Assembly (NCBI GenBank): GCA_965222035.1
Contig: OZ244940.1
Span: 1,775,852-1,839,851 of the forward strand
Origin: Candidatus Amphirhobacter sp.
GTDB lineage: Bacteria > Pseudomonadota > Gammaproteobacteria > Tethybacterales > Tethybacteraceae
Direction: 5' to 3'
DNA length: 64,000 nucleotides
The notes under the pieces are model-generated. The model did no database searches. It had not been told where the DNA came from and saw only the letters and a list, made by a program, of their open reading frames with translations. This document shows, in pieces, positions 3,526 to 63,397 of the stretch (its first letter is position 1; every line of letters starts with the position of its first letter). The translations under genes were made by a program, and so were the position numbers.

Positions 3526-3629
3526 GCGCCACCAAGGCTTTGGCTACGCGGCTATCTCAACCACTGCTTAGGAACTAACCTATGCGGCGATAGCCGCTTC
3601 GCCAGGGCCCGCCTGTCCTCAGAGGGCCC

Positions 3630-16060: not shown

Positions 16061-16198
16061 TCACCCAGCCGCAGTGGCGCGGCTTATCAAAACTCGTGAT
16101 GCTCCAGCTCGACTCGGCAGTACGAGACGGCGATGTGCTTGCTCGATTGCAAGCCGGGTCAAGATGGATTGTTTGGAAATCGCATATATAATTCCCTT

Positions 16199-26755: not shown

Positions 26756-28252
26756 CTAAGCGCCGTCAATCCTATCCATGCCCAAAGCCACGCTAAACTG
26801 CGCGGCTGGAATGACGCGCATGCCAGCGCCCAGCTGGGCGCTGTGCCCGTAACTGGCTTTGGAAGTGCAGTAGAGTTCCGGATTTGCTTTTTTCTTTTTA
26901 CTCCAGTTTCTTGCAAGCAACTGCATTCCACCTGAGACCTGCTCAAAGACCTTGTTGTCATCCTTCCATTTGATCTCAGCAAGCAGCTTGGGCCACCTAT
27001 CTTCGTTCAGGTAGCAAAGGTCTATTTCAAATGGTTGCGCCAATCTTTTGTATTCTAGATAACCGTATTCTTCAAAGGGCCTCTTCTTGTCAAATTGCGC
27101 TAGGGTCGCCGCCTCGACTCTGTTCCCTATGCCATGGCTGTCTTCCTTCACGCTCGCCTTAGCCAAGGAAGGCATCGAGCAGTTCTCTAGAATGAATTTG
27201 CAGTGCGTGTGCCGATGTTTCAGGAACTTCAAGTGCTGGTCAATCTTGCGAAAGCATTTGATGAAGTAGGCGCCCTCTAGAAAACTCAGGTATTTACGCA
27301 AGGTGAAGTCGTTGGTTTCCAACTCTTGTCTAGTTTGCTTCTCGCTGTATTGCGTGGCGTTGTTATTTACTAGCCGCTCGCCAAGGCGGCGGAGCAGATC
27401 CGAGCTGTTGACGCCAAACAAGAGCGGCAATTCATGCTCGACATAGAATGCAACAACGTTTTTCTGAGCACTAGCTCTCAGTTGTTCCCAAGATTTGCAT
27501 TCGCCGTTCTTGTACTCGTAAGCCAATGACGGAAAGGCTCCGAAGTTGATGTAATTGATGAATTCTTGGTTTAGTGCTTCTAGCTCCTCGGATGTCAGTT
27601 GCACATCGAGCATGGCATGGAACCCTTCCATCGGCAAGTTGGAGGGCCAAGCGTGTCTGAATTGCTTCAGGTACTCACAGAACAGAAGGGGTGGCAAGCG
27701 CATTTCGTCGATGCGTCCCAGCCCTGTTTCGCTGCGTTTTTTCTTCAGGATCCTTGCTGAAGATCCCGAGACCGCGCATCTGACAAAGGGTTGGCGATCG
27801 GCGATCACCTTCAAGTCATGTTCCCATTCATTGAAGAACTGGACTTCATCGATGATCAGCAACCAGTCTTGCTCTGGGTTTACGAGCTCCCGCTTGATCA
27901 ATCGTACGATGTCAAGGATGGCCATTCTTCTCAGCCTAGGTTCATCGCCGCTGACGAAGACGATTTGCTTGGGATTGTATTGGCCTGTCGCGATGGCGCT
28001 CCCTATTATCTGCATGAGCATGTGAGTTTTGCCCGTGCGCCGCAAGCCAATGAGAGCGACCACCTGGTCCTTGCGTCCTTGCAGTACTCTCTGCTCGAGA
28101 ATGGGGTAATACAGCCGATGCGGATCCCTGTGCTCCGGTGGCGGATTGCCATCAATCCACCAAGGATTGAGTTCCGTTTTTAGGACACTGACCATTTCTT
28201 CATGCATAAAAATATATTTCCCGTCATATTTTTTGACATTTGATTTTATCAT
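26756..28252 (-). CDS. AAA+ ATPase of the COG1373 / DUF4143 type with C-terminal D...ExK nuclease-like motif (paralog 1)
   Basis: Walker A GLRRTGKTH, Walker B LLIIDEVQ, and C-terminal FEIDLCYL...LAEIKW. The gene is AT-rich. The start at MIKSNV (28252) was chosen by homology of its start context with paralogs; MHEEM at 28207 is the alternative. Confidence 0.75.
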   Translation of the reverse strand: MIKSNVKKYDGKYIFMHEEMVSVLKTELNPWWIDGNPPPEHRDPHRLYYPILEQRVLQGRKDQVVALIGLRRTGKTHMLMQIIGSAIATGQYNPKQIVFVSGDEPRLRRMAILDIVRLIKRELVNPEQDWLLIIDEVQFFNEWEHDLKVIADRQPFVRCAVSGSSARILKKKRSETGLGRIDEMRLPPLLFCEYLKQFRHAWPSNLPMEGFHAMLDVQLTSEELEALNQEFINYINFGAFPSLAYEYKNGECKSWEQLRASAQKNVVAFYVEHELPLLFGVNSSDLLRRLGERLVNNNATQYSEKQTRQELETNDFTLRKYLSFLEGAYFIKCFRKIDQHLKFLKHRHTHCKFILENCSMPSLAKASVKEDSHGIGNRVEAATLAQFDKKRPFEEYGYLEYKRLAQPFEIDLCYLNEDRWPKLLAEIKWKDDNKVFEQVSGGMQLLARNWSKKKKANPELYCTSKASYGHSAQLGAGMRVIPAAQFSVALGMDRIDGA

Positions 28253-28584
28253 ATTGAAAACAAATAATAAAAACATGTATTGTATAAAAAATCCTATCAT
28301 CGCTAGATTTTTTGACATTTTAATATAAATATATGATAATATTGAATTATTCCATGTAGTAACTATTTGGCAGAGAATTGGGACTGTCGCTGCATTTAGA
28401 TCTGGCGGACCGCAGTATGCTAGATTGCTTCCCTATGTTGTTGCTGGCTGAGCGTCCCCGATTTCCCAGTGGAATACCGCTCTGCCCATCTCTTATGGGA
28501 TAAGAAACTGCAAGCTCTTGCAGCGGCGCTGGAGCAGTCAAGTTCGAATCATGCTACTTCTAATGCGTTCAGCCCCTAGGAAAA

Positions 28585-30042
28585 TCAGGACTGTTCATAG
28601 CCAATTCTTATCATGCCTAAGGCTGCGCTGAACTGCGCGGCTGGCAGAATGCGTATGCCTTCGGACAGCTTGGTGCCATCGCCGTAGCTGGTTCGGGAAG
28701 TGCAGTACAGCGCGGGCCTGACTGGATTCTCCTTGCTCCACTTCCGCATTAGACGTTCCATGTTGCCAGACGTTTGTTCAAATGCCCCGGCGCTATCTAG
28801 CCACTTTATCTCAGCTAGAAACTTGGGCCAGCCGTTCGTACCGAGATGGCAAAGATCTATCTCAAACGGCGGCACTGCTCTACCATGCTCAATGTAACCA
28901 TAGTCCTCGAAGAAAGATTTTTCGCTAAACTGAGATAAGGCGGCTGCCTTAACTCGCTTGCCCATGTCCAGGCTATCTGCATCCACAGCGTCCCCGACCA
29001 AGGATGGCATAGAGCAGTTTGCAAGAATGAACCTGCAGTGGGTGTGCCTATGCTTCAAGGTTTTTAGGTTCGGGTCAAACCTTCTGAAACACCTGATGAA
29101 GTAAGCTTCTTCGAGAAAACGCAGGTATCTTCTCAAAGTAATATCATTGGTCTGAAGTTTTTTCTTGATTTTTTGCTGGCCGTATTCCTGGGCATTGTTT
29201 TCAAGCAGCCAGCTTCCCAGGTCGTGTAGCAAGCCCGGGCTGCACGCGCCGAATAAACGAGACAGTCCGGGCTCGACATAGTGCTCAACAATATTCTTGT
29301 GCGCTTCCATCTTCAGCTCGTCCCAAGATGCGCACTGCTCGTCCTGGTATTCGTAGGCAAGCTGAGGAAAGGCGCCGAAATTAATGTAGTTGATGAATTC
29401 ACGGTTCAGTACCTTCAGCTCCTCGTCCGGCAGCCGCGCCTCGAGCATGGCTTGAACATCACTTGTTGGCAAGGCAGCAGGCCAAGCATTCCTGAATTGC
29501 TGCAGAAATTCGCAGAAAAGCAGAGGAGGAAGGTCCATCTCATAGATGCGTCCCAATCCGGTTTCGCTGCTCATGTTTTTCGCGATGGTCGCGGAAGAAC
29601 CCGAGGCCGCGCATCTGATGCGAGGCATGTGATCCGCGATTATCTTCAACTCCTGTCGCCAATTATCGAAGAATTGGACTTCATCGATGAGCAGCAGCCA
29701 GTCTTGCTTTGGGTTCACGATCTTTTGTTCGATCGCCTGTACGATTTCAGTGATGAGCATTTTTCTCAGCCCACCATAGTCGCCGCTGATGAAAACGATT
29801 TGCTGGGGAGCGTACTGGCCTGTCGCGATGGCGTCGCCCACCACCTGCTTGAGTATGTGCGTCTTGCCTGTGCGCCGCAGGCCCATAATGACGACAGCAC
29901 GGCCAACGCGTCCCTGCAGGATTCTCTTTTCGAGAATAGGGTAGTACATCCGATGGGGATGCGCATGTTCCGCTGGCGGCTTGGCATCGCTCCACCAAGG
30001 ATTAAGATAATCCTTCAGAAGCTGAACTGTTTCTTCCTTCAT
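28585..30042 (-). CDS. AAA+ ATPase of the COG1373 / DUF4143 type with C-terminal D...ExK motif (paralog 2)
   Basis: About 60% identical to paralog 1 by eye. It has GLRRTGKTH, LLLIDEVQ and FEIDLCHL...LAEIKW. Start at MKEETV (the listed ORF starts at the TTG at 30051). Confidence 0.75.
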   Translation of the reverse strand: MKEETVQLLKDYLNPWWSDAKPPAEHAHPHRMYYPILEKRILQGRVGRAVVIMGLRRTGKTHILKQVVGDAIATGQYAPQQIVFISGDYGGLRKMLITEIVQAIEQKIVNPKQDWLLLIDEVQFFDNWRQELKIIADHMPRIRCAASGSSATIAKNMSSETGLGRIYEMDLPPLLFCEFLQQFRNAWPAALPTSDVQAMLEARLPDEELKVLNREFINYINFGAFPQLAYEYQDEQCASWDELKMEAHKNIVEHYVEPGLSRLFGACSPGLLHDLGSWLLENNAQEYGQQKIKKKLQTNDITLRRYLRFLEEAYFIRCFRRFDPNLKTLKHRHTHCRFILANCSMPSLVGDAVDADSLDMGKRVKAAALSQFSEKSFFEDYGYIEHGRAVPPFEIDLCHLGTNGWPKFLAEIKWLDSAGAFEQTSGNMERLMRKWSKENPVRPALYCTSRTSYGDGTKLSEGIRILPAAQFSAALGMIRIGYEQS

Positions 30043-30154
30043 AAAAATCAATTATAATTTTTTACACAACATTCTATCATATTGATAAAAAAAGATAAAT
30101 AAATGTTATACAAAAAACCTTACTTTAATTATAATTTTTTATATAACACTATAT

Positions 30155-38453: not shown

Positions 38454-39380
38454 CTAGGACTTGAAGGGCGTGTCGTAGCCTGCGTAGCTCTGCACGTATT
38501 GAAGGATATAGGTGCCGCTCTCATCCTGCGGATTCTTGCCATCGACCAGCAGGCTGACGACCCCGCCGGCGCCGCGCAGATGCGCGCCGGCCAGGAGCCC
38601 GGACAGCGTGATGGTGACCTCGTTGGGCAGGCCGCTCGGCGGGTTGGGCACCGGCGGGTCGAGCTTGTCCCAATAGACCTTGGTGTTGAGGTAGTCGGAC
38701 AGCTGCTTGCCGCGCGCTTTCAGTCCATCGACAATGCCCTGGTACTTGTTGGCGAAGTGATCTTTGATGATGAGGATTTGTTTGGAGGGGTCGCGGAAGT
38801 CAGCGTTGCTGCTGATGCCGTTCTTGCCAGTGAAATTACCGTCAAAGAAGTAAACGGTGTCCGTGATCCAAGTTGGTGTGGAGACCAAGGCAGGGTCGTT
38901 GGAGAAGAAAATAGATCGGCCTGCTTTCCAATAGCTTGGATCCACATCCACATAATGCACTGGAAACAGCACTATTCCTTCATCGCTGCTAGCAGGCGCG
39001 GGAATTTCGGTGAAGTTATAGTAGCCGAGTGTCTGCAGATCAGATTCCTGGAACTGGAAGCCTACGAAGCCCAGGTAGTTGATTACCGAGGCCTGTATCT
39101 TCGCCCAGTCGGGCTTGGGGTTGGAGGGATCGTACAGCGAATCCACGCCGATGATGGTGAAGAGTTCCTTGATGGTCAGGTTGTCCTGCATGATGGGATT
39201 GCCGTCTTCATCGCGCACGACCCGTCCGGGACTAAGAACCCTCGGATAGCTGAGCGTGGTGCGAAGTTCCCAGTAGTGGTTGTAGAAGTCTTGCTTCGCC
39301 GGATCGATGTCGGATTCGAAAATCCAGACCGCGTTGATGAAGTCGTCGTAGCTGCCGCCTTGTGGTTTTTGCTCGCTCAT
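38454..39380 (-). CDS. Hypothetical protein, no confidently recognised family
   Basis: 308 aa from MSEQKPQGG, preceded by an AGGAAGG RBS. No signal peptide and intermediate GC. It is divergent from the DUF4143-type ATPase across an AT-rich spacer. The segments GFVGFQFQESDLQTLGYY and GAHLRGAGG weakly resemble lysozyme-like/transglycosylase families, but I cannot assign one. Confidence 0.5.
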   Translation of the reverse strand: MSEQKPQGGSYDDFINAVWIFESDIDPAKQDFYNHYWELRTTLSYPRVLSPGRVVRDEDGNPIMQDNLTIKELFTIIGVDSLYDPSNPKPDWAKIQASVINYLGFVGFQFQESDLQTLGYYNFTEIPAPASSDEGIVLFPVHYVDVDPSYWKAGRSIFFSNDPALVSTPTWITDTVYFFDGNFTGKNGISSNADFRDPSKQILIIKDHFANKYQGIVDGLKARGKQLSDYLNTKVYWDKLDPPVPNPPSGLPNEVTITLSGLLAGAHLRGAGGVVSLLVDGKNPQDESGTYILQYVQSYAGYDTPFKS

Positions 39381-39597
39381 GATTAGCCTTCCTGGTGCAA
39401 TTATAAGAGGCTTGTGGAGCGAAGTACCATCTACCAGAAACAACGTGCGCTTCGCATCCCTGGAATTTCTACCTATAGAAAGATATTTTAGGAATAATCG
39501 ATGATTAATCATAAAAATTTATATATTATTTAAAAATATCAGTAATAATTGGCTATTTTCCCTGTATTTTTATATATTCTTGAAAAATCACAGCAAT

Positions 39598-40815
39598 ATG
39601 ATAGAATTGCCGGGCATGAGCAGTAAAATCATTACTAGACGGAAGAAAGCGGAGGTCCTTCAAAGCCTTAGGATTCACCCGGCTGTTGCCATTCTAGGGC
39701 AGCATCAGGTGGGCAAAACCACGTTGGCGAAAGAAATAGCGGCCGACTTCGATGCCCGCTACTACGACTTCGAAACCGAGGGGGCTAGGCGCATGGTTGA
39801 CCAAGGCCGAATGTTCCAGCAGGTGCAGGAGGCAGAGGGAAACAGGCTAGTAGTGCTGGACGAAGTCCATAATCAGCACGGCTTGTTCTCGGAGTTGAAA
39901 GGGATTATCGACGCTAGCATTTCTCAGGACAAGGACAAAGCCATGGGTATGTTCCTGTTGCTCGATTCCTCGTCGCAGGAGCTGGCGAACAAATCAAATG
40001 AGAGCATGATAGGACGCTTGGGTTATGTGTACCTGGATCCGCTCAATGTCCTGGAAGTGGACAGGTACGACATTGACAAACTATGGCGGCGCGGCGGCCT
40101 GCCAAGTAGTTTTCTACAGAAAAATGATGATGATAGCAATCTTATCCGCCGCAGTATCATTGACCATATGTCGGGACGAGAATTAGCTGACCGCGGCCTG
40201 GGCATCGACTATGGCCAGAGGATGAGACTCATGCATATATTGGCGGATCGCCATGGTGGCATGTTGAATGTGGAGGAGCTGGCCAATGACATCAAAATAA
40301 AGAGGAAGCCGGTTGAGCGTTTTTTGGATTTGCTAGCCGACCTGCGCATAATCAGGCTGCTGCAGCCATATGAGAAGACTGTGACAAAAACACTGGTCAA
40401 GACTCCGAAGTTTTATTATCGAGACAGTGGAATGCTGCATTGGTTCTTGGGCATAATCAAGCAGGAAGAGTTGGAAGTGCATCGCCAATCAGGATATAGT
40501 TGGGAAAGTTTTGTCATCGAAAATATTCTGCGACTGGTGCATCGGCCCGATCTAGCTTGTTTTTATCGTACCAGGGACGGAGCGGAAATTGATTTAGTTC
40601 TCAAAATGCCCGGCGACCAAACCTGGGCTATTGACATCAAAGAAGGCTATCCTAAAATCAGCAGAGGAATGACTGTTTCACTCAATGACTTGAAACCAGA
40701 TCGCAGTTTCGTCGTCCACACGCGCGATGACTTGCCGCCTACCCAAGGCAAGCATGGCATTGAGTTCGTGTCCCTGTTGGGTATATGCCACGAGATTAAC
40801 GCAGCGCTCGAATAG
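39598..40815 (+). CDS. AAA+ ATPase with DUF4143-type C-terminal region and D...DxK motif (distant paralog 4)
   Basis: Walker A GQHQVGKTT, Walker B LVVLDEVH, C-terminal AEIDLVL...AIDIKEG. The start context CAATATGATAGAAT is shared with paralogs 1 and 2. The listed ORF begins at 39580. Confidence 0.7.
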   Translation: MIELPGMSSKIITRRKKAEVLQSLRIHPAVAILGQHQVGKTTLAKEIAADFDARYYDFETEGARRMVDQGRMFQQVQEAEGNRLVVLDEVHNQHGLFSELKGIIDASISQDKDKAMGMFLLLDSSSQELANKSNESMIGRLGYVYLDPLNVLEVDRYDIDKLWRRGGLPSSFLQKNDDDSNLIRRSIIDHMSGRELADRGLGIDYGQRMRLMHILADRHGGMLNVEELANDIKIKRKPVERFLDLLADLRIIRLLQPYEKTVTKTLVKTPKFYYRDSGMLHWFLGIIKQEELEVHRQSGYSWESFVIENILRLVHRPDLACFYRTRDGAEIDLVLKMPGDQTWAIDIKEGYPKISRGMTVSLNDLKPDRSFVVHTRDDLPPTQGKHGIEFVSLLGICHEINAALE

Positions 40816-45852: not shown

Positions 45853-47334
45853 ATGGCTAAACCAAACTGGGACAACCGCACTCTGTTCCAGGGCGATAAT
45901 CTGGATGTCATGCGAGCTATGAACTCCGAATCAGTTGATCTGATTGCCACCGATCCACCTTTTAACAAAGGGCACGATTTCCATGCTACGCCTGATAGCT
46001 TAGCCGCTGGTTCTTCCTTCCAGGACCGCTGGACCTGGGAGGAGGTTCATGAAGAATGGTTGGAGCAAATCCAGGGAGACAGCCTAAAGCTAACGACAGT
46101 CGTCAATTCCGCCCGTAAAGCTCATTCAGACGGCATGGGAGCTTTCCTATGTTTTCTTAGCGTTCGCCTTATGGCCATGCACAGATTGCTGAAGCCAACA
46201 GGCAGTATTTTCATTCACTGCGACCATAGTGCCGGCCATTACATCAAATCGGCGATGGATGCTGTATTTGGCAGCGACAATTTCGTCAATGAGATTGTGT
46301 GGCGGAGAGCTGAAGCGAAAGGCAGGGCAAAGAGATCCTTCGGCAAAAACCACGATATTATTTTCTGGTATGGCAAATCTAGAAGCCGTATATTCAACCC
46401 TATTTATCGACAGCATGATGCGAGGTATTTGTCAAAATATCGGCATGTGGAAGAGGGAACGATGCGACGCTATCAGCTTGACAATCTAATTTCACCCAAG
46501 CCTAACCCTAAAACGCGCTATGAGTTCCTAGGTGTTACAAAGGACTGGCGCTGGACTAAGGAGCGTATGGAGCAAGGTTTTAAAGATGGCATAGTGGTTC
46601 AAACTAAACCAGGTGCGACAGCTAGGCTTAAGCGCTATCTTGATGAACAAGGTGGGCCCATGATTGACAGTATATGGGATGATGTGAAGGCATTAAACTC
46701 ACAGGCAAATGAGCGTACTGGATATCCCACCCAAAAACCAATAGTGCTTTACAAGCGAATCATAAAAGTTGCCAGCAATCCAGGAGATATAGTGCTTGAT
46801 CCGTTCGCAGGCTGCGCCACTACATGTGTTGCTGCCGAGATGGAACAACGGCAATGGGTGGGAATTGATATTTGGAACAAGATAGAAGAGGTTATCAAAA
46901 GCAGGCTCGAGCAAGAGCGCGAACTAAAAGATCTTGATCCAAATGAGATATTTCTTATTAAGAACTTGCCAGAGCGCACCGATAAGGGAGATGTAGCCGC
47001 CCATTATCTGCGCGTTCGCGAGACTACTAAGAATCCTTGTGACAGGGACAGATTTAAGAACAATAAAGAGAGGAAAGAATTCCTCATTAAGCGAGATGGC
47101 GTTCGGTGCGCAGGTTGCGATAGAATTTTCGATCGCCCTGAATACCTGGAACTAGATCACAATACGCCAAGGTCGAGCGGCGGCTGGGACCACATCAGCA
47201 ACTATGTTTTGTTGTGTCGGCCTTGCAATGGGGCTAAATCCAATACACTTACGCTAGAAGGGCTGCGAAAACGGAACAAGCAGCAAGGTTTCATGGACAG
47301 CCAGCCAGCACCCACTAGTCCCCACCTCTCATAA
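45853..47334 (+). CDS. Beta-class N6A/N4C DNA methyltransferase fused to a C-terminal HNH nuclease domain
   Basis: Motif IV IATDPPFNKG precedes motif I VLDPFAGCATT (beta-class order), and YPTQKP is present. The C-terminus (about 47095-47270) reads CAGC...LELDHNTPRSSGGWDHISNYVLLCRPCNGAKSN, an HNH with two CxxC pairs. The gene is AT-rich. Confidence 0.8.
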   Translation: MAKPNWDNRTLFQGDNLDVMRAMNSESVDLIATDPPFNKGHDFHATPDSLAAGSSFQDRWTWEEVHEEWLEQIQGDSLKLTTVVNSARKAHSDGMGAFLCFLSVRLMAMHRLLKPTGSIFIHCDHSAGHYIKSAMDAVFGSDNFVNEIVWRRAEAKGRAKRSFGKNHDIIFWYGKSRSRIFNPIYRQHDARYLSKYRHVEEGTMRRYQLDNLISPKPNPKTRYEFLGVTKDWRWTKERMEQGFKDGIVVQTKPGATARLKRYLDEQGGPMIDSIWDDVKALNSQANERTGYPTQKPIVLYKRIIKVASNPGDIVLDPFAGCATTCVAAEMEQRQWVGIDIWNKIEEVIKSRLEQERELKDLDPNEIFLIKNLPERTDKGDVAAHYLRVRETTKNPCDRDRFKNNKERKEFLIKRDGVRCAGCDRIFDRPEYLELDHNTPRSSGGWDHISNYVLLCRPCNGAKSNTLTLEGLRKRNKQQGFMDSQPAPTSPHLS

Positions 47335-47344
47335 TAGAACACAA

Positions 47345-48220
47345 ATGAACAAAAAACAAAAAACTGAGGCAACAGCTCCTAACGAAGGCAAAATCGAAGT
47401 GCGGGCTTCAAGCCTGCCAGCGATAGCAAGCTGCGCCCGCTACTACGCAGCCCAGGTGTACGGCAAGGAGGCATCCCAAGCACATCCTGACATCATGGAG
47501 AAGGTTGAAAAACGTGGCGGAGGCTATAAGTCGACCATGGGAGATGCCATGCACAAAATCATGCATCTCAATCTCACACACGAGGATGAGGTGCATAAGG
47601 CGGCTGACGAAGCTTTCGAGCGCAAAATAGAAAAGCCCGGTTTTTTCGATGAGAAGTTTCTCAACACTTCTGACCTGAAAGACACGCTTGTCAAGATGGT
47701 GCAGAATTGCCGGCAGAGCGAGGCTGTGCGCGAGTGGACGACTGAGCGCGAAGGAAATATCTACGAAAAACAGTGGGAGATTGATGATTTGGACCCGGAT
47801 TACATTTTGACGGGGCACATCGATTGCGTTCGCAAGGACGGGATGGTACTTGATTTGAAAATTGGCGTCACTACCGATCAGCAGCTCTACCAAGAGCAGT
47901 TAACTGCTTATCATATGATGGTAGAGCGCCAGGGGCGCGAAAGCCCTGAAATTGCCACTATCGTAAAAATAGCAAGGCCCAAAACTCCCAATTTCAAAGA
48001 AACAACATTGCGTGTCGTACGCTATGAAATACCAATCACAATTCATAAGAAAAGCATCCCCATCTTGGTCAAGAAGGCTGGTGATGTAAAAAGTAATTAT
48101 GATAATTTCAAAGAAGATTTCACAAAGTTGCCTGCCAATCCCGCTTGCCGCGCCTGCCAATGGTGCAAGCTCAAGAACACCTCAGGATGTCCTGAAACTC
48201 AATCAAGGATCATCGAATAG
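47345..48220 (+). CDS. Cas4/RecB-like PD-(D/E)xK nuclease with Cys cluster
   Basis: N-terminal Cys (IASCARYY), GHIDCV, LDLK (DxK), QEQLTAYHMM (QxxxY), and C-terminal CRACQWCKLKNTSGC. It starts 10 nt after the MTase-HNH stop. Confidence 0.7.
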   Translation: MNKKQKTEATAPNEGKIEVRASSLPAIASCARYYAAQVYGKEASQAHPDIMEKVEKRGGGYKSTMGDAMHKIMHLNLTHEDEVHKAADEAFERKIEKPGFFDEKFLNTSDLKDTLVKMVQNCRQSEAVREWTTEREGNIYEKQWEIDDLDPDYILTGHIDCVRKDGMVLDLKIGVTTDQQLYQEQLTAYHMMVERQGRESPEIATIVKIARPKTPNFKETTLRVVRYEIPITIHKKSIPILVKKAGDVKSNYDNFKEDFTKLPANPACRACQWCKLKNTSGCPETQSRIIE

Positions 48221-48565: not shown

Positions 48566-49996
48566 TCACCGCCCGCTCCGTATTTTCTCCAGGCCCAGTC
48601 CATAGCCATACTGGGCGGTAGGCACGACGGTCAGGCCGCTTTTGAAAGCTAGCTTGCCCGCATAGACGCTTTGGGAAGTGCAGACCAGGATGTCGGGACG
48701 GCGTTCCTGCTTGCGCCACTCTATTTTGTTGAGCACATATGCCATAGTGCGATCCGCAGCGAGGAATTTATTTTCATCATCATCCCATTTCACTTCCGTA
48801 AGCGACTTCGGCTTGTTGTGAAGATCGATAAGAGCCAAATCGATTTCAAATGTCTGATTATTCTCTTTGAAATGGATGTAGCAGATCCTGTTAGTAAGCC
48901 TCTCTACATGCATTTGGGAGCGCACGAAGGCCTCGAGCTTATGACCTATGCCCTTCTCTGCAAGGTCGATTTCGACACCTTGCGATAATGTGTAGGCGGA
49001 GTTATTGACCAGCGAGTACCGATCTCCCCGATGGTTTGCGTTTTCACGCAGTAGTTCATCGACTTTGGGAGTGCGCGCCACGACATAGGCAGCTACTAAA
49101 TAATTAAGCATGTCTGCTATCTTGTCTCTTTTGACGTTGATGGCTGTGGCTAGGCGACTGACATTGATTTCCAGGCCGGAATGCGCGGTTAAGTGACCCT
49201 GTACCTTGCCTAGATCATTGGCCTCAAACTTGCCGTACAACGGCGCAATTGCTCGCAGGAGGTTGTTATCGAAGATGTCAAGAGTGATTGTTCTGTGACT
49301 CGGCGAACTAGCAAAAACCATTTCTGGATAACTGCCACGATTCAGATAATCCTGGAGATGGTGGTTTAGTTTGGCGATTGCGGCTGGTGATAGCCGGACC
49401 GAGAGGATGTCTTCCAGCTTGGTAGCGTCGCGGAAGGCGGCAGGGCGCTGGCCGATGAAACCCAAATACTCACAGAACAGAATTGGTGGCAGGTAATATT
49501 CCGAGAAGCGCCCCACTCCGGTCTCGCGCCCACGCAGCCGCATGGCGTAGGCTGCCGAGCCCGACGCCATGAATCTGATATCAGGGTACATGTCGGTCAG
49601 CACTTTCAGCTGCGTCTCCCAGTCGTCGCAAGACTGAATTTCGTCATAGACCACCAAGTAGGGCCCCTTAGTTTCCGCCTGCTCCCGGAAGATTTTCAGG
49701 ATATCATAGAGGCAGGAGTGATCCCGGACTGGCAGGGGGTCTATCGTGATGAAGCAGACGTTCTTGGGCTTGAAGCGGCCGGAAGCGATTGCCTCGCCGA
49801 TGATCTGCCGCAGCAAATAGGTCTTGCCCACCCGACGCGGTCCGAGTAGGATCGGCGTGCGGACATAGTCGGTACTGAAAGTTTGCTCGGTGAGGGCAGC
49901 GAACAAAGCGCGCCGATGCTTGGCCTGCACTTCCACAGGCGGCTTGCCGTCGTGCCACCATGGATTGCTTGCCACAATCCATTCACGCATCTTCAT
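48566..49996 (-). CDS. AAA+ ATPase of the COG1373 / DUF4143 type with C-terminal D...ExK motif (paralog 3)
   Basis: The N-terminus has NPWWHDGKPP as in paralogs 1 and 2. It has GPRRVGKTY, LVVYDEIQ and FEIDLALI...LTEVKW. Identity to paralogs 1 and 2 is about one third by eye. Confidence 0.7.
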   Translation of the reverse strand: MKMREWIVASNPWWHDGKPPVEVQAKHRRALFAALTEQTFSTDYVRTPILLGPRRVGKTYLLRQIIGEAIASGRFKPKNVCFITIDPLPVRDHSCLYDILKIFREQAETKGPYLVVYDEIQSCDDWETQLKVLTDMYPDIRFMASGSAAYAMRLRGRETGVGRFSEYYLPPILFCEYLGFIGQRPAAFRDATKLEDILSVRLSPAAIAKLNHHLQDYLNRGSYPEMVFASSPSHRTITLDIFDNNLLRAIAPLYGKFEANDLGKVQGHLTAHSGLEINVSRLATAINVKRDKIADMLNYLVAAYVVARTPKVDELLRENANHRGDRYSLVNNSAYTLSQGVEIDLAEKGIGHKLEAFVRSQMHVERLTNRICYIHFKENNQTFEIDLALIDLHNKPKSLTEVKWDDDENKFLAADRTMAYVLNKIEWRKQERRPDILVCTSQSVYAGKLAFKSGLTVVPTAQYGYGLGLEKIRSGR

Positions 49997-57243: not shown

Positions 57244-58332
57244 ATGAAGATCGACGGCAAGGCCTGGCGCACCATCTGGCCGCTCAAGGACGAGGCCGTT
57301 GGAATCATCGACCAGCGCCGCCTGCCGCATGAGTTCGTGACCATGGAGCTGCGCGATCTCGGCGCCGCCTGCGAGGCCATCAGCGACATGGCCGTCCGCG
57401 GCGCGCCCCTGATCGGCGCGACCGCCGCCTACGGCTTGTGCCTGGCCGCCAACGAGGACCCGGATCTCGAAGCCTTGCGCGCGGCCGGCGAGCGTTTGTG
57501 CGCGACCCGCCCGACGGCGGTCAACCTGCGCTGGGCGGTCGACCGCATGCTGATGCAGCTGAATAAGGCCCACATCGGCGCACGCGATACCGCCGCCTGG
57601 AAGGAGGCCGCGCTGATCTGCGATGAGGACGTTGAGACCAACCGCGCGCTCGGCGCGCACGGCAAGGATCTGATCGCCGAACTAGCCAAGGGCAAGGACG
57701 GCCCGGTGAACGTGCTCACTCATTGCAACGCCGGCTGGCTGGCGTGCGTCGACTGGGGGACGGCGACCTCGGCGATCTACCAGGCCCACGACGCCGGCAT
57801 CGACGTGCATGTCTGGGTCGATGAGACCCGCCCGCGCAACCAGGGCGCCTTCTTGACCGCCTGGGAGCTGGGCCGCCACGGCGTCCCGCACACGGTGATC
57901 GCGGACAACGCCGGCGGGCATTTGATGCAGCACGGCCAGGTCGACATCTGCATCGTCGGCACCGACCGCACCACCGGCGCCGGCGACGTGTGCAACAAGA
58001 TCGGTACTTATCTCAAGGCGCTCGCCGCGCACGACAATGGCATTCCGTTCTACGCCGCGCTGCCGTCCCCGAGCCTCGATCCCAAGCTCGCCGACGGTGT
58101 CGCCGAGATCCCCATCGAAGAGCGCTCGGCCCGCGAGGTCACCCACATCAGCGGCCTGACTGATGGCGGGGAGGTCGCGGAGGTGCAGCTGACGCCGGCG
58201 GGCAGCGGCGTGGGCAATCCGGGCTTTGACGTTACCCCGGCGCGGCTGGTCACCGGGCTGATTACCGAGCGCGGCGTGCTCAAAGCCGACCGCGCCAGCC
58301 TCAAAGAGGCCTTTCCCGAGCTGTTCGCCTAG
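57244..58332 (+). CDS. mtnA: S-methyl-5-thioribose-1-phosphate isomerase
   Basis: LTHCNAGWLA, VGTDRTTGAGDVCNKIGTY and IPFYAALPSPS are characteristic of MtnA/eIF-2B-related isomerases. Confidence 0.85.
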   Translation: MKIDGKAWRTIWPLKDEAVGIIDQRRLPHEFVTMELRDLGAACEAISDMAVRGAPLIGATAAYGLCLAANEDPDLEALRAAGERLCATRPTAVNLRWAVDRMLMQLNKAHIGARDTAAWKEAALICDEDVETNRALGAHGKDLIAELAKGKDGPVNVLTHCNAGWLACVDWGTATSAIYQAHDAGIDVHVWVDETRPRNQGAFLTAWELGRHGVPHTVIADNAGGHLMQHGQVDICIVGTDRTTGAGDVCNKIGTYLKALAAHDNGIPFYAALPSPSLDPKLADGVAEIPIEERSAREVTHISGLTDGGEVAEVQLTPAGSGVGNPGFDVTPARLVTGLITERGVLKADRASLKEAFPELFA

Positions 58333-59615
58333 GCGAGATCGGGCTCGCTGGCGTCGAGTTTTTCGGCGGCGGCGATCACATCGCTGATAGTACTGAAGCG
58401 CCCGGGGTCGGTGAGCAGCTGATGGGACAGTTCGAGCGCGCGGGCCTCGCAGCGCGCGCGGACGTCGGCTTCTTCGATGTGATCGAAGTCGATGTTGTGC
58501 GCGATGCCCAGTACCCGACGGGTCAGGGACGTACCGCAAAAGCCCAGCGCGTCGGCATACAGCGCGTCCATGTACTTGCTCCGCTCGGCCTCGAGCGACT
58601 TCTCATCGCTATGCAGCCGCAACTGATAAGCGGCGCCACGAGCTAGGTCAGGATCGCGCCACAGTTTCAAGAAGCGGTCGCGAAAGCCGGTCCATAGTTC
58701 TTCGGCGCACTGCAGCAGCCACTGTCGGTAGGGATCGCGCGCGCCGGAATCGGGCTCGTGGCCGCGCTGGCTGAAGAAGCTGATGAGGAAGTTGGCGATC
58801 AGCTTGCCGACATCAAAACCCATGGGCCCGAAGAAGGCGAACTCCGGGTCGATGACGCGCAGGTCGCCGTCGGCGACCATGATCGAGCCGGTGTGCAGGT
58901 CGCCGTGCAGCAGCGCTTGGGATGAAGACAGGAACTTGAGCTTGAGCTGCGCGACGCGCGCATGCAGGTCGCGGTCGGCCCGCCAGCGCGCGGCGTAGCC
59001 ATCGAGCTGCGGGGCGGTCCAGCGGTTGTTGGCGTGCTCGATGTAGGGCTCGGTGAAGATCACGTCCTCGGTCAGGCCGCACAGCACGTGGTTGCCGCCG
59101 AACTCCCCGGCGCGCAGCCGCTTGGTACCGGCCTCGAGATGCAGGTCCGAGGTTAGGAACAGGTTGCGCGCCATGAACTCGGCGAGCTGGGCGGCGCAGC
59201 CCTCGATGCGCTCGCCGGCGATCATCGGCTTGCGCATGATGGCATGCGGGCGCAGCAGCTCCATGACGATGCAATACAGTTTTTCGTGATAGGCGTGCAC
59301 CGCCGGGACCAGGCCGGGCGTGATCTCGTTCTCGCTCGCGAGGGCGAGGTGCTCGTAATAGGCGCGCGACAGCGGCAGCGGCCAGGCCTCGCCGACCAGC
59401 CGCAGGTAGGGCAGCGCCTGCTTGACGACCAGCCCGCCGCCGGGCCCGGTTACGATGAAGACCTGGTTGAGGTTGCCGTCGCCGACTTCCTCGGTCTGCC
59501 AGTCGGCCGGGCTGCCGCCGAGCAGCGCGGCGGCCTTGTTGTCGTCGGCCAGCAGCTTGCCGGCCGCGGCCTCATCGAGGATGTGGTAGCCGGGCGGGGA
59601 TTCGAGTTCAGGCAT
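58329..59615 (-). CDS. mtnK: S-methyl-5-thioribose kinase
   Basis: EVGDGNLNQVF, KQALPYLRLVGEAWPL and LLHGDLHTGSIMV..VIDPEFAFFGPMGFDVG parallel Bacillus MtnK as remembered. Confidence 0.85.
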   Translation of the reverse strand: MPELESPPGYHILDEAAAGKLLADDNKAAALLGGSPADWQTEEVGDGNLNQVFIVTGPGGGLVVKQALPYLRLVGEAWPLPLSRAYYEHLALASENEITPGLVPAVHAYHEKLYCIVMELLRPHAIMRKPMIAGERIEGCAAQLAEFMARNLFLTSDLHLEAGTKRLRAGEFGGNHVLCGLTEDVIFTEPYIEHANNRWTAPQLDGYAARWRADRDLHARVAQLKLKFLSSSQALLHGDLHTGSIMVADGDLRVIDPEFAFFGPMGFDVGKLIANFLISFFSQRGHEPDSGARDPYRQWLLQCAEELWTGFRDRFLKLWRDPDLARGAAYQLRLHSDEKSLEAERSKYMDALYADALGFCGTSLTRRVLGIAHNIDFDHIEEADVRARCEARALELSHQLLTDPGRFSTISDVIAAAEKLDASEPDLA

Positions 59616-59716
59616 GACGACGGCTCTATTTTAATTGGTGCGCTGGTTGAGCGAAGGAGTTCAGGCGTCGTGGCCCTGCGTCTGCTCAGAATTGATTTCG
59701 CTTAAAATACGATTGC

Positions 59717-60874
59717 ATGGCGAAGATTATTGAAAATCCATTCAACCCTGGTCCGGGGACCGTGCCTTTGTATATTGCTGGCCGGCGGCGGGAACGAAGA
59801 TTGATTGAGCAAGTCCTGCTGAGGGTGTCGGGATCAGGCTCAATCAAGAAAGGGAAACTGCGACCCCTAGCACCAATCAAGATTGTGGGCCCTCGTGGAG
59901 TGGGCAAGACCACGTTGCTGTACGAAGCGAAGAGGATGGCTCGGAGCCAAAACATCCAAGTGCTTCTCCTTTCAGAGCTCAACAGTTTGGCTGACGCCCA
60001 ATTATTGAACGGCCTAATGGGCGAGAAAGCCTACGAACGCCTGTTGGGCAAACTCGCTCGGCGCAAGAGCATGTCGGCTGGTTTTGCGGACATAGCCTGG
60101 GAGCCGGAGGATGTCGGTTTGGAGCAGCTCTTCCGCAAGAAAATGGCTAGGCGCCCGCTGCTGTTGGCGCTCGACGAGTTGATGCACTATGAGCCGCAGG
60201 CGTTGAGCGGGCTCTTGCGGGTATGCCATACATTGATTGGGGACAAACAGCCGCTAGCGGTGATGATGGCAGGTACGCCAGAGTCCGACCAGCTGTTGGA
60301 TCAGCTGCCAGCGAGATTCGCCGAGGACGTCATTGATATTGACATCAACGGCCTGAGCGACGATGAGACACTAGATGCCTTGGCCCGACCCTTCGAAATG
60401 CTTGGTGCGAAGGCTACATCCGCGGCGCTGCGACGCATGGTTGAGCTGAGCGACCACTATCCATATTTCATTCAGATTGTTGGTTATGAGGTTTGGAAGG
60501 CCATGTCGGCGACTGGCAAGAGTAAAGCAGGCTTGGCGTTGGTCAAGCAGGCTGAGCCTGCCATTAATATGAGGAGGGAACATCTCTACAGCAAGATCCA
60601 CGATTGGGTAATCAACAATGGTTTGCGCAAGCATGCTGAGCGAGCCGAGGAAATTCTCAAGATGAACCAAGGCAAGGTTGATTATGTCGCGATGCTCTCG
60701 GGCTTAGCTGGCAAAAAAATGAATGTGTTCGGTCAAGAGCATATCGAGATTTTCAACCAGTTGCTGGATCGGGGTCTTATCTGGACGGAGGGCGATGAGG
60801 TAGAAGCGGGCCTCCCGTCATTTTTTGACTACTGCCATCAGATTGTTGAGGAAGCGAAGCAAGAAAAATTGTAA
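59717..60874 (+). CDS. ORC/STAND-like P-loop ATPase (AAA_16 / ATPase_2-like), copy 1
   Basis: N-terminal NPFNPG...YIAGRRRE, Walker A GPRGVGKTTLL, Walker B LLLALDELMH, and a likely winged-helix C-terminus. GC is intermediate. Confidence 0.65.
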   Translation: MAKIIENPFNPGPGTVPLYIAGRRRERRLIEQVLLRVSGSGSIKKGKLRPLAPIKIVGPRGVGKTTLLYEAKRMARSQNIQVLLLSELNSLADAQLLNGLMGEKAYERLLGKLARRKSMSAGFADIAWEPEDVGLEQLFRKKMARRPLLLALDELMHYEPQALSGLLRVCHTLIGDKQPLAVMMAGTPESDQLLDQLPARFAEDVIDIDINGLSDDETLDALARPFEMLGAKATSAALRRMVELSDHYPYFIQIVGYEVWKAMSATGKSKAGLALVKQAEPAINMRREHLYSKIHDWVINNGLRKHAERAEEILKMNQGKVDYVAMLSGLAGKKMNVFGQEHIEIFNQLLDRGLIWTEGDEVEAGLPSFFDYCHQIVEEAKQEKL

Positions 60875-60962
60875 TGTGCTCCATCCCACCCGGGCGGTGG
60901 CCATCTTTAAAATGCACCGCCGCGCCGCCGGAGTGAGAAGGACCGGGATGCGGTAAAAAGGG

Positions 60963-61020
60963 ATGGAGAGGAGCGAGCTGCCAGAGTGGTTCCGGGCGAA
61001 GCCTGGCAAGCAGCGCCTGC
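60963..61020 (+). pseudogene. Duplicated 5' fragment of the ABC permease gene (first ~19 codons, MERSELPEWFRAKPGKQRL)
   Basis: Nearly identical to 62444-62500. After the junction, the reading frame runs into antisense mtnK-derived sequence (chimeric 74-aa ORF 60963-61187). Confidence 0.8.
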
Positions 61021-61100
61021 TAGTCGGACTAGCTGTCGCCGAGCAGCGTGGCGGCCTCATCGAGGATGAGGTAGCCGGGCGGGGATTCGAGTTCAGGCAT
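61021..61100 (-). pseudogene. Duplicated 5' fragment of mtnK (MPELESPPGY... then premature stop)
   Basis: The reverse complement matches the first codons of mtnK (59615 downward). It has a few substitutions and a 36-nt internal deletion. Confidence 0.8.
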
Positions 61101-61198
61101 GGCGACGGCTCTATAATTGGCGCGCTGGCTGAGCGAAGACATCCGGATGTCGCGGCTCTGCGTTCAACCAAGATTGATTTCGCTTAAAATACGATTGC

Positions 61199-62356
61199 AT
61201 GGCGAAGACTGTCAAAAACCCATTCAATCCTGGCACGGCGACTCAGCCCGTGTATGTGGCTGGTCGGTTGAAAGAGAGGGAACTCATCGAGGAAACCTTG
61301 TTGGGGATAACGGACTTGGATCCAGCTGATGAGACGCAGCCAGGCCCGCTTGTACCTCTCAAGATTGTGGGTCCTCGCGGCGTGGGCAAAACCACATTGC
61401 TTCTTGAAGCGAAGAAGTTGGCCAAGAGTCACAAAATCCAGGTGCTGCACCTCTCGGAGCTCAACAGTTTGGCTGACGCTAAGCTATTGACCGGCCTAGT
61501 GGGCGAGAAAGCCAAGGAACGCCTGCTGAACAAACTCTCCCGGATCAAAGGCATATCGGCTGGTCCCGTGGGCGTAGCCTGGGAGCCGGAGCAAATCGGT
61601 TTGGAGGATTCCTTCCGCAAGAAAATGGCGGAGCAGCCGTTGCTGTTGCTGCTTGATGAGCTGATGCACTATGAGCCCAAGGCGCTGAGCGGGCTGTTGC
61701 GAATATGCCAGCAATTGATTGGTGACAGAGAGCCGCTGGCGGTGATAATGGCAGGTACACCGCAGACTGACCAGGTGCTAGGCCAGCTGAAAGCGAGCTT
61801 CATTGAGAGAGTCAATAAGATTTACATCAACGCCTTTGACGATGATGAGACCCTGGACGCCTTGGCCCGTCCCTTCAAACTGCACAAGGCCAAGGTTGCG
61901 CCTGCGGCACTGGCTCGCATGACGAAGTTGCCCGATAACTATCCGTTTTTCATCCAGATTGTTGGCCGTGAGGTTTGGAAAGCTATGTCGGCAACTGGCA
62001 AGCGCGAAGTAAGCTTGGCGCTAGTCAAGCAGACTGAGCCTGCCATTAAAGAGAAACGGGAAAGTTTCTACGAAGAGATTCATGCAAAGATAATCAGTGC
62101 TTCTTTGCTCAAGCATGCGGAACGAGCCATGGAAATCCTAGGAAAGAACCAGGGCAAGGTCAAGCGTGTGACGATGATCTCGGGTTTGGCGGGCAAGAAA
62201 AAGAACGTGTTCGGCCCAGAGCATGTGGAAATTTTCAACAAGTTGATGGATCGGGGTTTCATCTGGATGCGGCGCGGTCGGGTGGAAGCGGGCATTCCAT
62301 CATTTTTTGACTACTGTCAGCAGGACGCTAAGGAAGTGGGGCACGAAGCAATTTAA
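61199..62356 (+). CDS. ORC/STAND-like P-loop ATPase, copy 2
   Basis: Same length (385 aa) and colinear with copy 1, about 60-65% aa identity by eye. Same Walker A (GPRGVGKTTLL) and Walker B (LLLLLDELMH). Confidence 0.65.
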   Translation: MAKTVKNPFNPGTATQPVYVAGRLKERELIEETLLGITDLDPADETQPGPLVPLKIVGPRGVGKTTLLLEAKKLAKSHKIQVLHLSELNSLADAKLLTGLVGEKAKERLLNKLSRIKGISAGPVGVAWEPEQIGLEDSFRKKMAEQPLLLLLDELMHYEPKALSGLLRICQQLIGDREPLAVIMAGTPQTDQVLGQLKASFIERVNKIYINAFDDDETLDALARPFKLHKAKVAPAALARMTKLPDNYPFFIQIVGREVWKAMSATGKREVSLALVKQTEPAIKEKRESFYEEIHAKIISASLLKHAERAMEILGKNQGKVKRVTMISGLAGKKKNVFGPEHVEIFNKLMDRGFIWMRRGRVEAGIPSFFDYCQQDAKEVGHEAI

Positions 62357-62443
62357 TTCGCTCCATGCCGCCCGGGCGGCGGCTATCCTAAAATGCAGCG
62401 TCGCGCCGCCGGAGTGAGAAGGGCCGGGACGCGGTAAAAAGGG

Positions 62444-63397
62444 ATGGAGAGGAGCGAGCTGCCAGAGTGGTTCCGGGCGAAGCCCGGCAAGCAGCGCCTG
62501 CAGGTGGGCCGCTGGGTGCCCGCCGCGCTGGTCGCGCCGCCGGTGCTGGTGCTGGTGGCGATCGTCGTGTACCCGACAATCTGGATGTTCTACCATTCGC
62601 TGCAGGACACCAACCTCATGCGGCTGTTCCAGGAGAACTGGTCGTACGTCGGCTTCGCCAATTTCGGCACCGTGCTGGGCTCGGACCGCTTCTGGAACGC
62701 CGCCGGGCAGATGGGGACCTACCTTTTGTTCGGCGCATGCCTGCAGGTGATGCTGGGGACCATCCTGGCGCTGGCGCTGTACGAGCTGGTGCGCAGCAAC
62801 ATCATGCGCACCGTGCTGCTGGTGCTGCTGGTGATCCCGATGATGCTGCCGCCTTCGATCGTGGGCGTGCTGTGGAAGTTCCTGCTCACGCCCTCGAACG
62901 GCGCCATCAACCAGGCTTTGCTCAACCTCGGCCTGATCACCGAGCACATTGAGTGGTTCAACCGCGGCCTGGCGCTGTGGTCGATCATCATCGCCGATGT
63001 CTGGAACTGGACCGCGCTGCCGCTGCTGATCGTCTTCTCCGGCCGGGTGTCGCTGCCGCCGGCGGTGTTCGAGGCCGCCCGCGTCGACGGCGCGAGCAAC
63101 TGGCAGGTGATGCGACGCCTGACCCTGCCGATGCTCAAGGAGATCATCGCCATCGCCTTCATCATCCGCTTCATGGACGCCTTCAAGTTCGTCGATTTGG
63201 TCTTCGTCATGACCTCGGGCGGCCCGGCGCAGTCGTCGGAACTGCCGGCCTACATCGCCTACCAGCGCGGCGTGCGCGAGTTCGAGATCGGCGAGGCCGC
63301 GGCGTACTCGCTGCTGATCTTCGTGTGCTCGGCCGTGATCATCACCTTGTTCCTGCAGTACCTCAAGCGCGTGGTCAAGGCGCAGGGGATCGCATGA
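62444..63397 (+). CDS. Sugar ABC transporter permease (MalF/UgpA-like)
   Basis: Multi-TM protein with EAARVDGASNWQVMRRLTLPMLK. Confidence 0.85.
   Translation: MERSELPEWFRAKPGKQRLQVGRWVPAALVAPPVLVLVAIVVYPTIWMFYHSLQDTNLMRLFQENWSYVGFANFGTVLGSDRFWNAAGQMGTYLLFGACLQVMLGTILALALYELVRSNIMRTVLLVLLVIPMMLPPSIVGVLWKFLLTPSNGAINQALLNLGLITEHIEWFNRGLALWSIIIADVWNWTALPLLIVFSGRVSLPPAVFEAARVDGASNWQVMRRLTLPMLKEIIAIAFIIRFMDAFKFVDLVFVMTSGGPAQSSELPAYIAYQRGVREFEIGEAAAYSLLIFVCSAVIITLFLQYLKRVVKAQGIA

Follow-up and report, generated by a model that had tools for sequence, protein, structure and literature searches.

The window analysed here is a 64,000-nt stretch of the genome of Candidatus Amphirhobacter sp. (contig OZ244940.1), and all coordinates are positions within it. 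Two ATPase genes lie in tandem on the plus strand between a functional mtnK gene and a functional ABC-transporter permease gene. The mtnK gene (58329..59615, minus strand) encodes a methylthioribose kinase of 428 aa, according to its open reading frame (ORF) and the Pfam APH family match of its orthologs. The permease gene (62444-63397, plus strand) occupies the right part of the region 62357..63397, behind an intergenic stretch with a GC-rich hairpin and a TAAAAT box, and its orthologs match Pfam BPD_transp_1. ATPase-A (59717..60874) and ATPase-B (61199..62356) are intact ORFs of 385 aa and belong to the alpha and beta lineages described below, respectively. Both contain the Walker A sequence GPRGVGKT, and the Walker B sequence is ALDE in ATPase-A and LLDE in ATPase-B. 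The GC contents of the two genes are 0.535 and 0.534, and the GC contents at third codon positions (GC3) are 0.64 and 0.65, compared with 0.87-0.96 in neighbouring genes. The two proteins are colinear, with no frame-breaking indels, and the computed identities of 64.2% (protein) and 73.4% (DNA) agree with the approximately 60-65% and 70% given by eye in a first-pass annotation of this DNA.

The sequence between the two genes consists of non-functional copies of the flanks. The segment 60875..61020 (plus strand) is a copy of the ATPase 3' region followed by permease codons 1-19, with the copied permease start codon at 60963. The segment 61017..61100 (minus strand) is a copy of the mtnK 5' end, with the complement of the start codon at 61098-61100 and a deletion of 36 nt, which falls between GCGGCC repeats. 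The segment 61101..61198 (plus strand) is a copy of the intergenic region 5' of ATPase-B, with a 3-nt deletion. According to the alignments, permease codon ~19 is joined to mtnK codon ~40 at 61017..61020 with a 4-nt CTGC overlap. The duplicated left flank derives from the 5' end of the functional mtnK, and the duplicated right flank from the region 62357..63397 with the functional permease. Two units repeated head to tail every 1482 nt were recovered both by a repeat search and by global alignment. Their arrangement, with the right end of one unit joined to the left end of the next at a novel junction, is that of a tandem segmental duplication. The original intergenic region 5' of ATPase-A (59616..59716, plus strand) was divided using an eight-copy alignment: about 33 nt adjoining mtnK are conserved, a core of about 45 nt shows three haplotypes among the genomes, and then a 36-nt patch starts. 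This patch, ATTGATTTCGCTTAAAATACGATTGCATGGCGAAGA, reported earlier to be identical at both gene starts, was found by exact string search at exactly two places, 59691..59726 and 61173..61208, extending into both genes.

The duplicated flanks are well above the coding sequences (CDS) in identity. The mtnK-derived stretch (59566-59629 against 61051-61114) shows 97% identity over 64 nt, in line with the earlier count of about 59 of 61 positions. The permease-derived stretch (60908-61027 against 62389-62508) shows 93% identity over 120 nt. Only one difference is present in roughly the last 90 nt before the junction. Of the changes private to the non-functional copy (60875..61020), several are located in its first 100 nt and one in its last ~60 nt. 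All aligned flank positions together show 91.8% identity (21 differences in 256 positions), with 97-99% in stretches. In 40-nt intervals, the identities (%) are 97, 87, 65 and 92 in the left flank, 50-87 in the CDS, and 82, 95, 97 and 93 in the right flank. The central ~45 nt of the upstream intergenic region, with 65% identity, are as diverged as the CDS. Taken as a whole, the flanks are clearly more similar than the CDS without being near-identical throughout. A uniform divergence of CDS and flanks, which the first-pass annotation had named as the outcome speaking against such a contrast, is not seen in the computed profile. In the outer part of the mtnK fragment (61017-61057), six of the 41 nt differ from the functional copy of the same genome, and all of these changes are from G/C to A/T, the pattern that decay without constraint would give when the genome is rich in GC. 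Some states of this fragment recur as variants in the functional mtnK of other genomes.

Non-synonymous (dN) and synonymous (dS) divergences were calculated by the Nei-Gojobori method with a custom script on protein-guided codon alignments. In the following, W denotes the window genome and L-numbers denote related contigs. ATPase-A and ATPase-B differ by a dS of 0.67 and a dN of 0.25, resulting in a dN/dS of 0.37. The genes mtnK, mtnA and permease, compared between the window and four related genomes (L001-L004), show dS of 0.08-0.28, dN of 0.000-0.042 and dN/dS of 0.00-0.16 (mtnK, 0.06-0.16; permease, ~0.01). The dS between ATPase-A and ATPase-B is about five times that of these neighbouring genes. 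For orthologous ATPases, dS, dN and dN/dS are 0.18, 0.043 and 0.23 (W_A and L2_A), and 0.14, 0.045 and 0.32 (W_B and L2_B). As the ortholog dS resembles that of the neighbours, there is no local hypermutation, and the ortholog dN/dS of 0.23-0.32 indicates that both copies are maintained. Because the synonymous rate inside the ATPase genes is normal, the common ancestor of ATPase-A and ATPase-B is much older than that of the flanks. Selection on amino acids cannot produce this contrast between CDS and flanks.

The slot between mtnK and the permease was compared in seven related contigs. It contains an alpha-beta array in W, L002 and L045 and a gamma-alpha array in L001, and in two genomes it contains one gene, namely gamma in L003 and a divergent allele in L004/L005. 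An empty site was found neither in these seven contigs nor in a scan of GTDB representative genomes. According to the neighbour-joining tree with 200 bootstraps, the alpha lineage consists of W_A, L2_A and L1_B (99%), the beta lineage of W_B, L2_B, P0006 and P0007 (100%), and the gamma lineage of L1_A, P0003 and L3 (99%), and L4 is separate. As alpha occupies the first position in W and the second in L001, the position in the array is not conserved. The three lineages and the divergent L004 allele separated long before the host genomes diverged. The same junction with the 36-nt and 3-nt deletions is present in W, L002 and L045, and these deletions are absent from all functional copies; the join is therefore older than the separation of W, L002 and L045. 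The junction of L001 is different, the hairpin 3' of the first gene being joined to mtnK. The haplotype of the upstream intergenic core is not coupled to the lineage of the CDS: W_A is preceded by type 1 and its ortholog L2_A by type 3, and type 2 precedes the second gene in all arrays seen, including ATPase-B.

The alleles are mosaics with statistical support, indicating intragenic recombination. The mosaic structure was seen in sliding identities and in a test of the maximum-chi-square type, in which the runs of parental sites are non-random and none of 200 permutations reached the observed value. The gamma alleles resemble alpha in codons ~1-79 and, for the most part, beta in the central part. 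L1_B contains a beta tract at codons 321-344. There, and over codons 316-345, it shows 97% identity to W_B, compared with only 86% between W_B and its ortholog L2_B. The conserved patches including the 36-nt start region are likely to be the crossover points.

Two segments within the gene are unusually variable. Codons 31-50 (59807..59866 in ATPase-A and 61289-61348 in ATPase-B, plus strand), located 5' of the P-loop strand, are hypervariable and occur in two very different forms with 52-58% DNA identity; in the structure model described below, the predicted local distance difference test score (pLDDT) is low at residues 44-47. Codons 121-140 (60077..60136 in ATPase-A and 61559-61618 in ATPase-B, plus strand) encode part of a helical insert between Walker A and Walker B. 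In an analysis by intervals according to Nei and Gojobori, only these codons have a proportion of non-synonymous differences (pN) equal to or above that of synonymous differences (pS), with a mean pN/pS of 1.26 in 26 deep pairs; between ATPase-A and ATPase-B, pS is 0.07 and pN is 0.26. An overlapping antisense gene was considered as the cause of low synonymous and high non-synonymous change at codons 100-171 and was rejected: the antisense ORF is open in both window copies, and stop codons break it in L2_B, L3 and L4.

The structure was modelled by AlphaFold2 using an alignment of 63 family members (pLDDT 87.5; predicted template-modelling score 0.84). The protein is confidently predicted to consist of an AAA+ ATPase core, a lid and a C-terminal winged helix, and to be closest to Cdc6/ORC and to archaeal ATPase_2 proteins. 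In the model, the strand order is that expected for AAA+ proteins, helices 94-145 are located between Walker A and Walker B, helices 215-300 form the lid, and the C-terminus consists of helices followed by a beta-hairpin (H323-351, E355-358, E361-364). Gly58, Gly63 and Lys64 of Walker A and Asp153-Glu154 of Walker B are invariant among the 63 members, and Thr65 is nearly so. The top matches of the fold search by Foldseek are Cdc6 (1fnn), PAB2304 (2qen), ORC2 (1w5t), SSO1545 (2fna), RuvB and ORC subunits; proteasomal ATPases were also matched over the whole chain. The E-values and template-modelling scores (TM) are 4.4e-10 and 0.56/0.61 for 2qen, and 9.2e-9 and 0.54/0.58 for 2fna. The Cdc6/ORC matches span the whole chain with TM of only 0.40-0.50. 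The earlier description of a P-loop ORC/STAND-like ATPase with a winged-helix C-terminus is in agreement with both the model and the fold search. According to the model, the 385 residues are wholly taken up by the ATPase, lid and winged helix; the lack of an effector domain, which had been noticed earlier, was confirmed from the sequence.

Family profiles gave matches close to or below their thresholds. Pfam AAA_22 is just above its cut-off of 27 bits (28.7 and 31.2 bits). ATPase_2 (PF01637) is below its gathering threshold of 33.2 bits, with 17.2 bits for ATPase-A and 30.4 bits for ATPase-B, and some relatives carry a precomputed PF01637 match. AAA_16 (24.6 and 21.8 bits; cut-off 32.6), nSTAND_NTPase5 (E 0.067) and the Pfam ORC-CDC6-like family (E 0.13-0.14; 11 bits, cut-off 27) gave no match above threshold. 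A search of the PDB with the family profile found matches at the P-loop level only, the best natural protein being human ORC4 (E 2.7e-4), and a search of viral folds in BFVD found only generic AAA+ and clamp-loader matches. The best PADLOC match is mad8 (E 8.4e-4), covering part of the protein, and the others have E of 0.005 or above over short stretches; the NCBIfam antiphage model DS41_1 gave an E of 0.014 and 14 bits, with a cut-off of 370 bits.

A profile search of 1.84 billion representative proteins yielded 488 clusters (50% identity) at E <= 1e-30, and the best 150 matches are nearly all ~380-400 aa in length and matched over the full length. Among the GTDB representative genomes, only one closer relative was found, in the sponge-symbiont metagenome-assembled genome AqS2 (37% identity). 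In Rhodococcoides fascians (L017), a distant relative is a lone 392-aa AAA_16 protein with an unrelated neighbour of similar size; this sole distant actinobacterial locus examined gave no functional lead. A member of 749 aa (P0211) shows two matched stretches, and would represent either two tandem copies fused into one or a gene call extended by read-through. Literature searches on this ATPase family in sponge symbionts found nothing relevant.

In principle, the assembler could have produced the array by joining variants of one single-copy gene from two strains head to tail; the source genome is metagenome-derived, and samples of this kind contain several alleles side by side. However, the whole locus is covered by unitigs in three independent sequencing runs, without mismatch at the junction (60974-61099), which is spanned by an exact unitig. 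In the two runs with a single junction unitig, its depth is near that of the flanking contigs (16 against 16, and 326 against 205-284). In the three runs, ATPase-A, ATPase-B and the flanking contigs all have approximately single-copy depth. Furthermore, the junction has its own decayed sequence and specific deletion, and it recurs, with substitutions, in three genomes that were assembled separately and in a run from another host organism, which contains a related array about 6% diverged. The sequence was found in sponge and marine metagenome runs. An artefact is thus extremely improbable. A real and recent duplication might have been followed by strong diversifying selection on the proteins while the neutral flanks stayed similar, as the first-pass annotation proposed among its readings. 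The ortholog ATPase dN (0.043-0.045) above that of the neighbouring genes (0.001-0.029) and the excess at codons 121-140 point in this direction, but the pockets with pN at or above pS are only local. The dS of 0.67 is several times the flank divergence of 8% and the between-genome dS of the neighbours, the overall dN/dS is 0.37, the orthologs have a normal synonymous rate, and equally diverged alleles exist as single copies in other genomes. We consider strong selection as the main cause very improbable.

If, on the other hand, the duplication were as ancient as the divergence of ATPase-A and ATPase-B, repeated gene conversion would have to keep the flank fragments similar to the functional genes. 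The single change in the last ~60 nt of the permease-derived fragment would suit this explanation, as would the region 60963-61187, which differs between genomes by only ~5%, below the neutral expectation. Conversion would erase the 36-nt and 3-nt deletions, yet these are common to the fragments of W, L002 and L045. The fragment in W shows 21 differences in 256 positions from its own functional copy and 18-24 from the functional copies of other genomes, being no nearer to its own, and at none of the 256 positions do the fragment and the functional copy of a single genome share a state that is absent elsewhere. The tree does not separate first-slot from second-slot genes into two clades; alpha takes the first slot in W and the second in L001. 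Homogenisation of the flanks by gene conversion, also proposed earlier, is not supported by these results, and an ancient duplication of this kind is quite unlikely. The pair might instead result from two successive insertions, at one site, of a mobile single-gene cassette of site-specific or homing type. Family members do occur alone or paired between unrelated housekeeping genes at many positions, with a conserved box 5' of the start and a GC content below that of the adjacent DNA; in L042, each copy is followed by the same 38-nt repeat (100% identity), and in L040, each is preceded by a copy of the MGMT 5' end. But no integrase, transposase or other mobility gene is located beside any copy in the slot contigs and L039-L042, the slot is occupied in all seven related contigs, and the duplication of both flanks is the signature of a segmental tandem duplication and not of an insertion. 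Insertion of a cassette is unlikely.

The array is probably composed of two long-separated alleles of a variable, recombining gene, stacked in tandem and reshuffled by recombination, and its product would be an ATP-driven switch, perhaps a sensor of foreign elements. The proposed course of events is as follows. A segment of ~1.48 kb, from inside mtnK to inside the permease, would have been tandem-duplicated via an illegitimate join at the 4-nt CTGC microhomology. The incoming copy may already have carried a different allele, or one copy may soon have been replaced by allelic recombination through the conserved patches. The age of the junction, approximately that of this genome group, would then be given by the flanks, and the age of the alleles, about five times greater, by the CDS; neither positive selection after the duplication nor homogenisation of the flanks would be needed. 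Both copies would have been kept intact since the join under moderate purifying selection. The stacking of a second allele by recombination through the flanks had been among the readings of the first-pass annotation and is the one that the data support: the slot is indeed multi-allelic and the array composition varies, whereas the join is at a microhomology and not a crossover in the flank homology. Arrays may collapse by crossover between the copies, which would give hybrids such as gamma, with its alpha-like N-terminus and beta-like middle. Tandem pairs may last only if their members have diverged so far that homologous deletion is no longer efficient, which would explain the DNA identity of 69-78% in all pairs seen.

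Several points weigh against this reading or parts of it. The different allele may have arrived with the duplication or may have replaced one copy afterwards, and the data are compatible with either order. The junction in L001 may have arisen independently, or from the window-type junction by a deletion between GGCGGCGGC repeats. The region between the copies (60963-61187) changes between genomes less than neighbouring synonymous sites, and may have been subject to some constraint or old conversion. The segment with pN at or above pS comprises only 20 codons with an unusually low pS, its signal could come from a recombination tract and not from selection, and the overall dN/dS between ATPase-A and ATPase-B is well below 1. 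With regard to the sensor role, no family of PADLOC-DB 2.0, NCBIfam or PHROG was matched above noise. Neither an effector domain nor a sensor-repeat domain was found, nor an extra Pfam domain in nine longer members and the 749-aa protein, and the L039-L042 contigs show no conserved partner gene beside the family members.

The start codon is fixed because the N-terminal NPFxPG motif is conserved. No Shine-Dalgarno sequence precedes either ATPase ATG, as reported earlier, and a simple promoter scan of the plus strand found no convincing sigma-70 promoter 5' of either ATG. TTAAAAT boxes are located at 59702-59708, 8 nt before the ATG of ATPase-A, and at 61184-61190. A box of the TTAAAAT, TAAAAT or TTAAAT type is present 5' of every paralog checked (L039-L042), within ~10 nt of the start in most cases and ~18 nt in two, and these paralogs likewise lack a Shine-Dalgarno sequence. 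A TAAAAT box is also present ~50 nt 5' of the permease start (62391-62396), and the copy of the putative permease promoter at ~60915 may also drive ATPase-B. From its sequence, the TTAAAAT-type box looks like the -10 element of this organism, and a leaderless or very short-leader mRNA started at the box is the likely prediction. The terminators inside the CDS given by a simple scan are probably chance hits, and an Rfam scan of the whole window found two tRNAs only and no RNA family at the ATPase locus.

A chimeric ORF of 74 codons (60963..61187, plus strand) begins at the copied permease start, reads the mtnK fragment in antisense and then the intergenic region, and stops at the TAA within the TTAAAAT box, 11 nt before the start codon of ATPase-B. 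The frame is uninterrupted in W, L002 and L045, and its pN/pS is 0.4-0.8, based on very few changes. Its antisense frame is open in the functional mtnK copy as well. The function of this ORF is doubtful, and its openness may be due to chance. It might couple translation or carry a promoter for ATPase-B.

The exact ATPase-B protein is encoded on a 1,855,096-bp NCBI contig with seven further family members, and the genome holds at least nine. All family copies are lower in GC than their surroundings. The nearest named MtnA proteins are alphaproteobacterial, with ~65% identity, and the analysis treated the host as a sponge-associated alphaproteobacterium. At other positions, the family members occur singly or as diverged tandem pairs, with unrelated housekeeping genes on either side. 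A pair is located between the ABC-F and MGMT genes in L039 and L040, single genes are located between ftsY and purM and between a PBP gene and pgsA in L041, and a pair lies directly 5' of a histidine-kinase gene in L042. Tandem diverged pairs elsewhere, which the earlier check had asked for, are therefore found at other slots; they have dS of 0.53-0.73, with 5'-end fragments of the downstream gene or the 100%-identical 38-nt repeats between the copies. The L042 repeat is located at 11181-11218 and 12544-12581, after the two members, the CDS of which are only 70% identical; diverged versions are present 5' of each gene (9928-9965 and 11280-11317). It is either a cassette-bracketing repeat or part of a duplicated unit. 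In L040, the first ~30 nt of MGMT including the start codon occur at ~8600-8640, 9930-9970 and 11217-11260, with copies preceding both ATPases. In L039, they occur at ~3510-3550 and 4803-4845, with a copy preceding the second ATPase only. The arrangement of these 5'-end copies suggests repeated segmental duplication or a collapsed longer array at the MGMT slot.

The other low-GC islets of the window (GC 0.46-0.54, compared with ~0.68 in the host) mostly encode restriction-modification or defence-candidate genes. They are located at 32-1873, 16133-17656, 38454-39512, 39580-40815, 45853-47334, 47345-48220 and 48566-49996. The products include the C-terminal part of a Type ISP/IIG restriction-modification enzyme, a Schlafen AlbA_2/HATPase_c_4 protein, and an N6/N4 methylase-HNH nuclease fusion followed by a Cas4-like nuclease; the ORF 38454-39512 gave no family match. 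Four AAA_14/DUF4143 ATPases (PADLOC candidate PDC-S01) are present in the window, two of them as a tandem pair on the minus strand (26756-28318 and 28585-30051; 60% protein identity, GC 0.49-0.52) and the other two among the islets listed above. The base composition shared by the tandem ATPases and these defence-type genes supports a putative immune-like role. The PDC-S01 genes have the same genomic lifestyle, as low-GC single-gene islets with one diverged tandem pair, but they belong to another family: the ATPases studied here match it at E 0.01-0.03 over short stretches and are without DUF4143.

The archaeal ATPase_2 proteins (PF01637), represented by PAB2304 of Pyrococcus abyssi and SSO1545 of Sulfolobus, are the best whole-chain fold matches (TM 0.54-0.61). 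They resemble the window proteins in the ATPase base, lid and C-terminal winged helix, in size, and in being stand-alone genes of unassigned role, and many paralogs are present per genome. In contrast, the sequence match of the window proteins is below the Pfam cut-off and their hosts are bacterial; we know of no report of an allelic series, mosaic alleles or tandem stacking at one slot in the ATPase_2 family. Orc1/Cdc6 proteins (for example 1fnn, 1w5t and 2qby) are the top fold matches by E-value. They too have a helical insert between Walker A and Walker B, an initiator-specific motif to which the insert in the model may correspond, and a C-terminal winged helix. The identity, however, is only 13-16%, and the family studied here is multi-copy, hypervariable and compositionally foreign. 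The bacterial host uses replication of the DnaA type, and an initiator role for these ATPases is very unlikely.

The STAND NTPases (NB-ARC, NACHT and AAA_16, such as bacterial Avs and plant NLR proteins) have a similar module of nucleotide-binding, helical and winged-helix parts, in accordance with the weak AAA_16 and nSTAND matches, whereas the window protein is the switch module only, without sensor repeats or effector. Plant NLR clusters are tandem arrays in which old alleles are kept and new alleles are formed by unequal crossover and intragenic recombination, and the evolutionary behaviour of the present family resembles theirs. A possible route to the array is given by natural transformation, which is reported to generate merodiploids (partial chromosome duplications) in Streptococcus pneumoniae (PMC3784515); the junction in the window is a 4-nt microhomology.

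The ATPase is probably an ATP-driven switch binding DNA or a partner, with allele variety favoured, and sensing of foreign genetic elements would fit best. An immune-sensor role is plausible. The dynamic itself is of a known kind, namely the recombination and copy-number change of hypervariable loci, as in plant NLR clusters; in the present case it concerns an uncharacterised effector-less ORC/Cdc6-like family in a sponge symbiont. As a tentative extension, for which we would claim little confidence, these switch-module proteins may be a new single-gene immune or self/non-self family of sponge symbionts, in which diverged paralogs cooperate, for example in mixed oligomers, like paired or networked plant NLRs, and the repertoire is renewed by an accordion of tandem stacking and crossover collapse into hybrids.

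The locus is a clean natural case in which the flanks and the CDS of a tandem duplicate differ in age. Reading such pairs as fast divergence after duplication leads to wrong estimates of selection. The present work defines an uncharacterised family of ~390-aa ORC/Cdc6-like ATPases, which shows the traits of immune genes, that is, old alleles, mosaic recombination, copy-number change, many paralogs and foreign base composition, in a small symbiont genome. If sensing of foreign DNA or phage is true, the family would add a minimal effector-less type to the bacterial NTPase-based defences.

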